A stretch of 64,000 nt of DNA from Candidatus Porisulfidus sp. TsSOB (lineage in GTDB: Bacteria; Pseudomonadota; Gammaproteobacteria; Poriferisulfidales; Poriferisulfidaceae): positions 19,864 through 83,863 of the forward strand of contig MRSX01000004.1 in the NCBI GenBank assembly GCA_002631715.1. The letters are read 5' to 3'. The position numbers were made by a program, and so were the translations under genes. Shown here piece by piece: positions 57,405 through 58,166 of this stretch; the first letter of the stretch is position 1; each line of letters starts with the position of its first letter. The notes under the pieces are model-generated. The model was given only the letters and a program-made list of their open reading frames with translations. It did no database searches and had not been told where the DNA came from.

Positions 57405-58166
57405 TTAGAAGGCTCCCGGAATCACCGCCTTTCGGTCGGCCGGATAGTCTTCGAATTTCTCCTGGTACCACCGGTGGTGGCTGTAGGCCCTCGGCACCAG
57501 GTTGGCGGCGGTGAACACGAAGAAAGCGAAACCCGCCATCGACCAAGTCGCCAGCGCCCAGCCAGCCCATTCCAGTATTTCCCCGAGATGGTTCGGGCAG
57601 GAGACGAAACGGAATCCTCCGCCCCGGGGAATAGCGTAGCCGGTCTCGCCGGGCTTGCGCAGGCGCAGCAGGACCGTGTCGGAATGGAGGTTGAGGGCCA
57701 TGCCGAACAGGAAGACCGCGAGACCGACCAAGAAGCGGGGGTCGCTCAGCCATGAAATGTCGTACGTGGCGAATTCCGAGACGACCCGGGCGTTGATGTA
57801 GGCATTGATCACATTGAAGAAGACACCCGATGCGGCGACCGCGATCGGCATTCTCTTGCCTCGTGTGCGCAACCGAAACGGAAAGATCAGCGTTCGGTGC
57901 ACGTAGTGGGCCTGCCACATGACGAGGAACACCAGCGGCACGACCTCCCAGGCGGATTCTCCGCAGAGATATACGTACAGGAAGACGACCACGGTCGGCA
58001 GTTCCATGACGATCCAGGCGGTCCGGTTGGAGATGGACGGCCCCCAGCCTGCGGCCGGGTAGTGCCGGCCGAACGGGGCGGTCTTGTAAAGCAAATACAG
58101 GAAAGTCGGGATTGAGATCGCGAGAACTGCCCAGACCAGGATGCCGTGGATTTCCAGTTCAGTCAT
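57405..58166 (-). CDS. Steroid 5-alpha-reductase family protein (SRD5A/DET2-like)
   Basis: WIVMELP, HYVHRT, NLHSD..L..LRKPG...Y.IP.GG, PNHLGEILEW, PRA..HH.WY...F..YP..RKA.IP. Confidence 0.92.
   Translation of the reverse strand: MTELEIHGILVWAVLAISIPTFLYLLYKTAPFGRHYPAAGWGPSISNRTAWIVMELPTVVVFLYVYLCGESAWEVVPLVFLVMWQAHYVHRTLIFPFRLRTRGKRMPIAVAASGVFFNVINAYINARVVSEFATYDISWLSDPRFLVGLAVFLFGMALNLHSDTVLLRLRKPGETGYAIPRGGGFRFVSCPNHLGEILEWAGWALATWSMAGFAFFVFTAANLVPRAYSHHRWYQEKFEDYPADRKAVIPGAF

Follow-up and report, generated by a model that had tools for sequence, protein, structure and literature searches.

The window analysed here is a stretch of 64,000 nucleotides (64 kb) of contig MRSX01000004.1 from Candidatus Porisulfidus sp. 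TsSOB. Its minus strand carries an open reading frame (ORF) that runs from an ATG at 58166 to a TAA at 57405 and encodes a protein of 253 amino acids (aa), which sequence comparison assigns with full support to the SRD5A1/2 or DET2-type steroid 5-alpha-reductases (PF02544; EC 1.3.1.22). The Pfam profile Steroid_dh matches over positions 2-150 of its 150 (E = 2e-53, 180.9 bits against a cutoff of 22.6). A search of solved structures returned the bacterial enzyme PbSRD5A (7c83_A; E = 5e-81, 275 bits), with residues 16-250 of the window protein aligned nearly gap-free to residues 21-255 of 7c83, and human SRD5A2 over its full length (7bw1_A; E = 3e-46, 161 bits). These matches are far beyond chance and bear out an earlier prediction, made from the sequence alone, that an SRD5A/DET2-type enzyme is encoded here. 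The window protein is 53% identical to PbSRD5A overall and, by global alignment, 40% identical to human SRD5A2, the latter sequence having been checked against the segments in the structure-search alignment. In the cofactor half of the protein (residues 136-253), the values are 67% and 53%, respectively.

Comparison with TECR, which the original prediction had proposed, points the same way. The very-long-chain enoyl-CoA reductase TECR art-1 (22of_A) matches with E = 5e-10 and 42 bits, so that by bit score the window protein is nearer to SRD5A1/2 than to TECR; no SRD5A3 structure was among the matches. Secondary Pfam matches lie in the C-terminal part (residues 145-224), to DUF1295 with E = 1e-4 and to PEMT under its cutoff. 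Given the weak TECR match and the restriction of the DUF1295 and PEMT matches to the C-terminal part, membership in the TECR, SRD5A3 or ICMT-PEMT-DUF1295 groups was dropped. No NCBIfam model fits the protein, the sole match in that search being a chance one to CoxD (E = 0.01). An AlphaFold2 model based on 34 homologs has seven long helices, with a predicted local distance difference test score (pLDDT) of 63 and a predicted template modelling score (pTM) of 0.65, and Foldseek found significant matches to it in the PDB in 7c83 (E = 5e-14, template modelling score 0.64) and 7bw1 (E = 1e-9, score 0.58) and no others.

The roles of the catalytic Glu and Tyr and of the NADPH-binding residues are taken from work on the solved enzymes, in which both sets were validated by mutagenesis (PMC7815742). 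Residues E57, Y91, R94, N160, D164, R171, N193, E197, R227, H231 and Y235 of human SRD5A2 align globally with E55, Y88, R91, N159, D163, R170, N192, E196, R226, H230 and Y234 of the window protein, and every equivalent that the original prediction had listed, in the motifs MELP, HYVHRT, NLHSD, LRKPG, PNHLGE and PRAYSHH, falls in its place. E55 and Y88, the pair that binds the 3-oxo group, are invariant in our alignment (A1) and kept in every intact copy among 78 related loci. The NADPH-binding set is complete (R91, N159, D163, R170, N192, E196, R226, H230 and Y234); N159, D163 and R170 are invariant in the same alignment, and the H230 column holds H, N, S or I among relatives. The further claim that the catalytic residues are intact stands for the Glu/Tyr pair and the NADPH-binding residues and overlooked one position. 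Human Q56, first residue of the Q-E-Y signature, corresponds to M54, so that the window protein reads MELP where human SRD5A2 and PbSRD5A read QELP. The signature consists of human Q56, E57 and Y91, and the replacements Q56A/L, E57L and Y91F abolish activity (PMC7815742). Across the 78 related loci, however, Met is near-universal at this position, including the copies of Alistipes, Rikenellaceae and Paludibacteraceae, which are members of the gut 5AR group to which the production of 5-alpha bile acids is attributed (PMC11110704). Because Met is the norm in the bacterial homologs, the change from Gln is probably harmless, and M-E-Y is probably a clade-wide variant of a supporting residue outside the catalytic pair rather than a defect.

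The nearest genomic relatives, with protein identities of 80-95%, belong to Candidatus Porisulfidus and to related metagenome-assembled genomes (MAGs) assigned to "Chromatiales" or Gammaproteobacteria; both the names of their isolates (RHO, COS and APA bins) and their sources indicate an origin in marine sponges. An identical SRD5A protein is encoded on JGI metagenome contigs labelled SP3Tswi, a label that we take to stand for Theonella swinhoei, and in three other assemblies, and the sequencing runs in which DNA of the window occurs bear the labels of sponge or coral-reef metagenomes. The bacterium that carries the gene is a sulfur-oxidising gammaproteobacterial symbiont with a small genome, of the Candidatus Porisulfidus lineage, and its host is a marine sponge. 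Porisulfidus genomes are 1.6-1.9 Mb in size, and the window also contains the typical gammaproteobacterial housekeeping genes lepB, rnc, era, rpsB, tsf, dxr, bamA, lpxDAB, dnaE, pyrG, lptABC, kdsD, orn, nadB, rpoE and rseA.

The locus in the Porisulfidus lineage

The position of the SRD5A gene is syntenic in Porisulfidus MAGs, with orn and nadB on one side and a gene for an 830-aa MMPL/HAE3 transporter on the other. The ORF is full length and intact in all 13 loci of the Porisulfidus family. The ratio of nonsynonymous to synonymous substitution rates (dN/dS) between the window gene and 13 orthologs is 0.09-0.24, and the GC content of the gene, overall and at third codon positions (GC3), matches that of the rest of the window. 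A putative promoter lies upstream (Table 1; a scan for the promoter consensus found 2 sites against 0.5 expected from shuffles), and a purine-rich stretch (GGAAGAGAGAACGGGA) stands immediately 5' of the ATG. Because it is syntenic, intact in every family locus, low in dN/dS and native in composition, and has its own promoter-like site, the gene is in this lineage maintained by purifying selection, stands alone and has been inherited vertically. A 190-nucleotide contig from a sponge metatranscriptome matches positions 57458-57638 at about 94% identity, a faint hint that an ortholog is transcribed.

The genes immediately around SRD5A vary from strain to strain. Insertions comprise Fic/DUF4172 genes, RelB either alone or paired with a YafQ/ParE toxin, and AAA_14-DUF4143 genes, and both flanks are a hotspot for such insertions. 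Directly downstream of SRD5A the window has a RelB/DinJ antitoxin gene whose toxin is missing; at the same place three related loci (L046, L081 and L082) have RelB together with a YafQ/ParE-type toxin, and the window instead has a Fic/DUF4172 gene. The intergenic region upstream (58167-58650) is also strain-variable, and one contig of sequencing run X2 joins 58166 straight to 58653. Two small ORFs lie upstream of SRD5A. One encodes a hydrophobic 74-aa protein without a family match that is conserved in some relatives. The other encodes a 100-aa protein with a signal-like N-terminus and a CTACH motif of the CxxCH heme-c type; its start overlaps that of orn, and Pfam and NCBIfam searches with it gave no match. 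The 830-aa MMPL neighbour was considered as a sterol transporter and rejected, as it is a generic HAE3/HpnN-like protein of the resistance-nodulation-division (RND) type (151 and 101 bits, far under the cutoffs) that scores 18 bits for BstA. A functional link between it and SRD5A was dropped in view of their convergent orientation and the variable mobile genes in between.

Neither the window nor any 20-kb locus of a close relative contains a gene for a short-chain dehydrogenase/reductase (SDR), isomerase, oxidase, cytochrome P450 (P450) or Rieske protein. The closest copies outside Porisulfidus (L008 and L009) have a hydrolase, porins, a transposase and a Y-family polymerase as neighbours, none of them steroid-related. 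One gammaproteobacterial chromosome (OZ242278.1) has two SRD5A copies (L009 and L010/L083), 78-80% identical to the window protein, of which one stands alone and the other is preceded by GPP34-P450 and SDR genes. Where this second copy starts is uncertain, as its tblastn match opens with an ATA codon. Two ORFs of 428 and 546 aa downstream of the L010 copy were considered as ERG24 and CYP51 and turned out to be components of a urea or branched-chain ABC transporter. On two chromosomes of Thermodesulfobacteriota or Dadabacteria type (L045 and L074) SRD5A is seemingly frameshifted, with the conserved columns lost after the first third to half; these copies are either pseudogenes or assembly errors.

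Sister clade and sterol-synthesis genes

Scans for homolog, SDR and oxidosqualene cyclase (OSC) loci were seeded by patterns and each took the best 80 loci. In a neighbour-joining tree, the Porisulfidus-family SRD5A clade is sister to a short-branched clade made up entirely of sponge-type MAGs from at least 11 phyla, with Alpha- and Gammaproteobacteria, Acidobacteriota, Latescibacterota, Gemmatimonadota, Rhodothermia, Verrucomicrobiota, Binatota, Dadabacteria, Deinococcota and Spirochaetota among its taxa. The window protein is 64-66% identical to the members of this clade. Between phyla, the median SRD5A identity within it is 85-90%, the mark of genes that have spread horizontally in recent times. 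They are part of a module: an extended SDR gene lies immediately upstream of SRD5A on the same strand, and the order SDR-SRD5A recurs in about 45 loci from many phyla. The SDR, which is itself 80-88% identical across phyla, matches PF01370 and PF01073, and its best NCBIfam models are HpnA and the sterol demethylase SdmB, both under their cutoffs. Directly upstream of the pair there is often a gene for a 677-aa fusion of a GPP34 (GOLPH3-like) domain and a P450, with homologs in about 39 loci, whose best solved relatives are Methylococcus CYP51 structures at only 82 bits. A KshA_C-type Rieske oxygenase also belongs to the module, as does in some cases an RND pump. Compared with canonical sterol-pathway genes, the module genes are distant paralogs (21-31% identity). 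The sister clade is thus part of a horizontally exchanged, steroid-modifying module common to sponge symbionts of many phyla.

The bare SDR-SRD5A pair also occurs outside sponges, in Dehalococcoidia, Chloroflexota, Bacteroidales, Prolixibacteraceae and Polyangia, and in gut Paludibacteraceae SRD5A adjoins an Old-Yellow-Enzyme or BaiCD-like flavoprotein gene and an SDR gene. PbSRD5A groups in the tree with copies from myxobacteria, which are known to make sterols (PMC4919349). The window and the 20-kb loci of its close relatives have no homolog of the SdmB/HpnA-like SDR that stands upstream of SRD5A in the module, and no Porisulfidus chromosome was among the 80 best matches to the module SDR.

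A physical link to sterol synthesis is seen in two alphaproteobacterial sponge MAGs (L103 and L113), in which the P450-SDR-SRD5A module lies 2-3 kb from a Sterol_MT_C sterol C-24 methyltransferase and a cyclase with the DCTAE motif of OSC (the same contigs, with the full OSC locus, are L163 and L164). SRD5A lies within 8 kb of an OSC gene in 2 of 80 OSC loci. With this cyclase as query, homologs were found in assemblies that carry the window-type SRD5A, and the 1.57-Mb Porisulfidus chromosome OZ220694.1 has a cluster of sterol-synthesis genes (Table 1) that includes a single ORF in which squalene epoxidase (SE) and OSC are fused. The SE-OSC fusion is conserved at full length in sponge-associated MAGs of many phyla (64-100% identity among the best 80 loci, L243-L322). 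Sterol clusters of this type have already been described for sponge symbionts (PMC9531527, Kelly et al. 2022; PMC10070321, Brown et al. 2023). The "DFR + hypothetical protein" flank of Kelly et al. was considered as a possible SDR-SRD5A pair, but in the Porisulfidus cluster these genes encode the SdmB-like SDR and the SdmA-like Rieske oxygenase. The 8,14-sterol reductase of PMC13277303 is an unrelated enzyme of the NTF2 family.

A second scan, with the fusion protein as query, located SE-OSC in 9 of the 12 Porisulfidus-family assemblies carrying the window-type SRD5A; these nine have the cluster with SdmB-like, SdmA-like, ERG24, P450, SE-OSC and SMT genes. They include the MAGs of L001 and L002, whose SRD5A proteins are 95% identical to that of the window. 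Among the best 80 loci of this pattern-seeded scan there was no match in the complete chromosomes OZ241993.1 and OZ243950.1 or in one MAG, all of which have SRD5A. Conversely, the Porisulfidus chromosome OY764335.1 has the fusion and gave no SRD5A match among the best 80 loci of the corresponding pattern-seeded scan. These absences are likely real, though not proven. As to the strain of the window itself, run X2 contains the window at about 99% identity and a depth of about 15, and contigs of the same run with a depth of 12.5-17.5 cover one sterol cluster (L237) at about 91-94% identity; the window and the MAG that holds this cluster are 90.7% identical over 13.8 kb. The similar depth and divergence suggest that the window's own strain probably carries the sterol cluster. 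Within the window there are no genes for OSC, CYP51, ERG24, SdmAB or sterol methyltransferase (SMT). The original prediction had proposed a genome search for cholesterol oxidase or 3-beta-HSD; neither of these nor any other steroid gene occurs in the window, and the only candidate partner of 3-beta-HSD type that was found in the lineage is the SdmB-like SDR of the cluster.

Table 1. Positions of the SRD5A gene, its predicted functional segments and other features discussed in the text (window coordinates unless a locus is named).
Feature	Position	Strand	Basis or remarks
SRD5A gene	57405..58166	-	ORF, PF02544, 7c83/7bw1 matches, AlphaFold2 model, Foldseek, dN/dS
Putative sigma-70-like promoter	58195..58223	-	CTGAAA, 17-nucleotide spacer, TAAAAT; about 30 nucleotides upstream of start; pattern match only
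M54-E55 codons	58002..58007	-	E55 = human E57 (proposed C4 proton donor); M54 at the motif Gln
Y88-V-H-R91 codons	57894..57905	-	Y88 = human Y91 (polarises C3 carbonyl); R91 = R94
N159-R170 codons (NLHSDTVLLRLR)	57657..57692	-	NADPH-binding segment; human N160, D164, R171
N192-E196 codons (NHLGE)	57579..57593	-	NADPH-binding segment; human N193, E197
R226-Y234 codons (RAYSHHRWY)	57465..57491	-	NADPH-binding segment; human R227, H231, Y235
RelB/DinJ antitoxin gene	57068..57325	-	
Fic/DUF4172 gene	55928..57043	+	
74-aa ORF	58381..58605	+	
100-aa ORF	58645..58947	-	
Ankyrin-repeat protein gene	46842..47723	+	Ank_2, E = 1e-63; signal-like N-terminus
EF-hand repeat protein gene	47854..48894	+	
354-aa ORF	49692..50756	-	LptC (14-187) and LptA (216-348)
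930-aa ORF	35862..38654	-	
GPP34-P450 fusion of the sister-clade module	L024 6873..8906		
OZ220694.1 cluster: SdmB-like SDR			311 bits
OZ220694.1 cluster: SdmA-like Rieske oxygenase			401 bits, full length
OZ220694.1 cluster: ERG4/ERG24 sterol reductase			
OZ220694.1 cluster: P450			
OZ220694.1 cluster: sterol methyltransferase (follows the SE-OSC fusion)			
OZ220694.1 cluster: SE-OSC fusion, one ORF, 1151-1176 aa	L214 6909..10364		TIGR01787 above cutoff; TIGR03463, 741 bits
OZ220694.1 cluster: desaturase-family protein		other strand	
OZ220694.1 cluster: FAD_binding_4 protein		other strand	

Predicted reaction, substrate and role

The explanation that we favour, and hold to be reasonably probable, is that the gene product is a functional enzyme of the SRD5A1/2 and PbSRD5A type, an integral membrane protein that uses NADPH for the 5-alpha reduction of 3-oxo-delta4 steroids and likely acts on C27-C30 sterol 4-en-3-ones of the holobiont. 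Family and fold, the conservation of active-site and cofactor residues, selection, habitat and the joint occurrence with sterol genes are observed; which reaction the enzyme catalyses, on which class of substrate and in what physiological role, is the predicted part of this explanation. By homology to the solved enzymes, NADPH would be held by helices 5-7, and a 3-oxo-4-ene sterol or steroid would sit in a hydrophobic pocket formed by helices 1-4. The C3 carbonyl would be polarised by hydrogen bonds with Y88 and E55, the hydride of NADPH would be delivered to C5 on the alpha face, and protonation of C4 by E55 would yield a 3-oxo-5-alpha product. The most plausible substrate is a 4-en-3-one derived from a sterol of the sponge-microbe community rather than an animal hormone, because the partner genes of the family in bacteria are of sterol or triterpenoid type, relatives of the gene are linked to OSC and SMT genes, and the lineage is a predicted sterol producer; vertebrate-type hormones are unlikely substrates. 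The stenone may have its source in the sterol pathway of the bacterium itself, in the sponge host or in both. Since close relatives encode a sterol-synthesis cluster, it may be the bacterium's own product. The earlier proposal that host stenones are converted to 5-alpha-stanols therefore survives as one branch of the explanation, in which the symbiont's own pathway is another possible source.

Several observations weigh against this explanation. The substrate half of the protein (residues 1-135, helices 1-4) is 40% identical to PbSRD5A and 20% identical to human SRD5A2, and with conservation this weak homology does not settle substrate specificity; judged by sequence, the chemistry is well supported and the substrate is not. 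The confidence of the structural model (pLDDT 63) is just moderate, and M54 stands at the Gln position whose Q56A/L mutants are inactive in the human enzyme. In the window's lineage no adjacent gene could make the 4-en-3-one, whether SDR, isomerase or oxidase. SRD5A lies 0.56-0.64 Mb from the sterol cluster in Porisulfidus-family chromosomes, and the two seem separable within the genus. The canonical bacterial sterol pathway (OSC, CYP51, ERG24, SdmA/B) is not known to make a delta4-3-ketone, and thus a role for SRD5A in de novo synthesis is not obvious. The lack of such a ketone in the pathway, together with a gene that is unlinked to the cluster and separable from it, fits an accessory role or one on an exogenous substrate. 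Finally, 5-alpha reduction has been demonstrated for PbSRD5A and eukaryotic enzymes only (PMC7815742), which leaves the activity of the window's clade a prediction.

The enzyme might instead act on steroid hormones or signals of the host, progesterone- or androgen-like 3-oxo-4-enes, and so alter host signalling. This would agree with the in vitro preference of PbSRD5A for progesterone (PMC7815742), with an obligate-looking animal symbiont whose window encodes eukaryote-like ankyrin and EF-hand proteins, and with the retention of SRD5A in two Porisulfidus chromosomes without a detected SE-OSC, which fits an exogenous substrate. However, the host is a sponge and no pointer to hormone-type substrates was found. 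The bacterial partners of the family are of sterol or triterpenoid type (SdmB/HpnA-like SDR, CYP51-like P450, SMT and OSC), and the SDR-SRD5A pair occurs in free-living sediment and soil Dehalococcoidia and Chloroflexota that have no host to signal to. We consider this reading unlikely, and the suggestion in the original prediction that the bacterium alters steroid signals found no specific support. The same fold and cofactor chemistry could also serve a different class of substrate, a non-steroid alpha,beta-unsaturated carbonyl or an isoprenoid, with the polyprenols of SRD5A3, the enoyl-CoAs of TECR and terpenoid enones of sponge or bacterial origin among the candidates. The identity of only 40% to PbSRD5A in the substrate half, the change from Gln to Met in the motif, the weak DUF1295 and PEMT matches and the lack of a steroid gene beside SRD5A in the lineage would all allow for it. 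It is nevertheless improbable in view of the bit scores (275 and 161 to the SRD5A1/2-type structures against 42 to TECR), the invariance of the Glu/Tyr pair that recognises the 3-oxo group and the physical linkage of relatives to sterol genes. In addition, Met at the Gln position is shared with a gut Bacteroidota clade credited with 5-alpha reduction of bile acids.

Two further readings carry far less weight with us. The enzyme could work in catabolism, either in reverse as a 3-oxo-5-alpha-steroid delta4-dehydrogenase or by feeding sterol degradation in a symbiont that consumes host stanols or sterols. The known catabolic delta4-(5-alpha)-dehydrogenases are soluble flavoproteins outside the SRD5A family, which speaks against such a role, and the window and the 20-kb loci of its close relatives contain no Kst, Ksh or Hsa genes. 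The small genome (1.6-1.9 Mb) also counts against it, and NADPH-linked SRD5A enzymes are reductases in all characterised cases (PMC7815742). Even with the KshA_C-type Rieske oxygenase of the sister-clade module and the enrichment of sponge metagenomes in steroid catabolism genes, with sponge-specific KshA clusters (PMC5790920), a catabolic role is thus highly improbable. Still less credible is a decaying, functionless remnant of a horizontally acquired module. It could be seen in a gene that stands alone amid mobile and toxin-antitoxin genes (Fic, orphan RelB and AAA_14-DUF4143, with transposases in relatives) and in the frameshifted copies elsewhere (L045 and L074), but the intact ORF in all 13 family loci and the dN/dS of 0.09-0.24 largely refute it, and the conserved catalytic and cofactor residues, the native codon composition and the promoter-like site speak against it as well.

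Comparison with known enzymes and other features of the window

Bacterial SRD5A homologs, their structure and the sterol clusters of sponge symbionts are already published. As an annotation of the window alone, the family assignment is solid and unsurprising; the more interesting part lies beyond it, in the mobile module and in the pairing of SRD5A with sterol synthesis within a reduced genome. Han et al. (2021, PMC7815742) showed in vitro reduction of progesterone and androstenedione by PbSRD5A (PDB 7C83), which comes from a "Proteobacteria bacterium". The enzyme shares with the window protein its length, an end-to-end alignment, seven helices, the Glu/Tyr pair and every NADPH ligand, but it has the full Q-E-Y signature where the window protein has M-E-Y, and its place in the tree is with myxobacteria, outside the sponge-symbiont clade. 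The human enzymes SRD5A1 and SRD5A2 and plant DET2 (EC 1.3.1.22) resemble the window protein in the catalytic and cofactor residues listed above for SRD5A2; unlike them, the window protein is bacterial and its setting is that of sterols in a sponge symbiont, not hormone or brassinosteroid synthesis. The gut Bacteroidota enzyme 5AR, a member of the same family that is listed with the PDB entries 7C83/7BW1, produces bile acids of the 5-alpha (allo) type (PMC11110704). Like the window protein, the 5AR of Odoribacter, Parabacteroides and Alistipes, which yields 3-oxo-allo bile acids, has Met at the Gln position. In contrast to the window gene, which has no adjacent partners, it has SDR or Old-Yellow-Enzyme-type partner genes next to it; it is only 38-47% identical to the window protein, is basal in the neighbour-joining tree and uses bile acids as substrates.

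The SDR-SRD5A module of sponge symbionts has its habitat and SRD5A clade in common with the window gene. The module is highly mobile, however, whereas the window copy is older, vertically inherited and stands alone. Sterol clusters of the published sponge-symbiont type are present in Porisulfidus-family genomes, and their descriptions (PMC9531527, PMC10070321) mention no SRD5A-type gene; nor do the papers searched mention one for sponge symbionts or bacterial sterol producers. So far, bacterial SRD5A has meant one crystal structure (PbSRD5A) and gut bile-acid metabolism, and here the family is found, conserved by purifying selection, in a reduced-genome sponge symbiont of a lineage that also encodes a sterol pathway. 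If the enzyme saturates sterol A-rings, this would be a new step in bacterial sterol pathways, not considered so far, and would bear on the question of who makes the stanols and unusual sterols of sponges and on the interpretation of sterane biomarkers. A broader and rather doubtful extension is that sponge symbionts, this sulfur oxidiser among them, synthesise sterols de novo and employ SRD5A-type reductases, in other phyla together with the mobile SDR/P450/Rieske module, to produce sterols with a 5-alpha-saturated A-ring. Were this so, part of the 5-alpha-stanol and unusual-sterol inventory of demosponges would be bacterial, and likewise part of the sterane signal used as a sponge biomarker. 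Microbial conversion of stenols to 5-alpha-stanols in sediments has long been known, and a candidate for its genetic basis would in that case be the SDR-SRD5A pair found in Dehalococcoidia, Chloroflexota and Bacteroidales of sediments.

Elsewhere in the window (Table 1), the genes for the ankyrin-repeat and EF-hand repeat proteins adjoin each other, and both proteins are eukaryote-like, of a kind reported to be enriched in sponge symbionts. The 354-aa ORF that combines LptC and LptA is either a natural fusion or two genes merged by the ORF call. The 930-aa ORF has a signal-like start and a repetitive N-terminal region rich in Gly, Asn and Thr, and may encode a surface or autotransporter-like protein.

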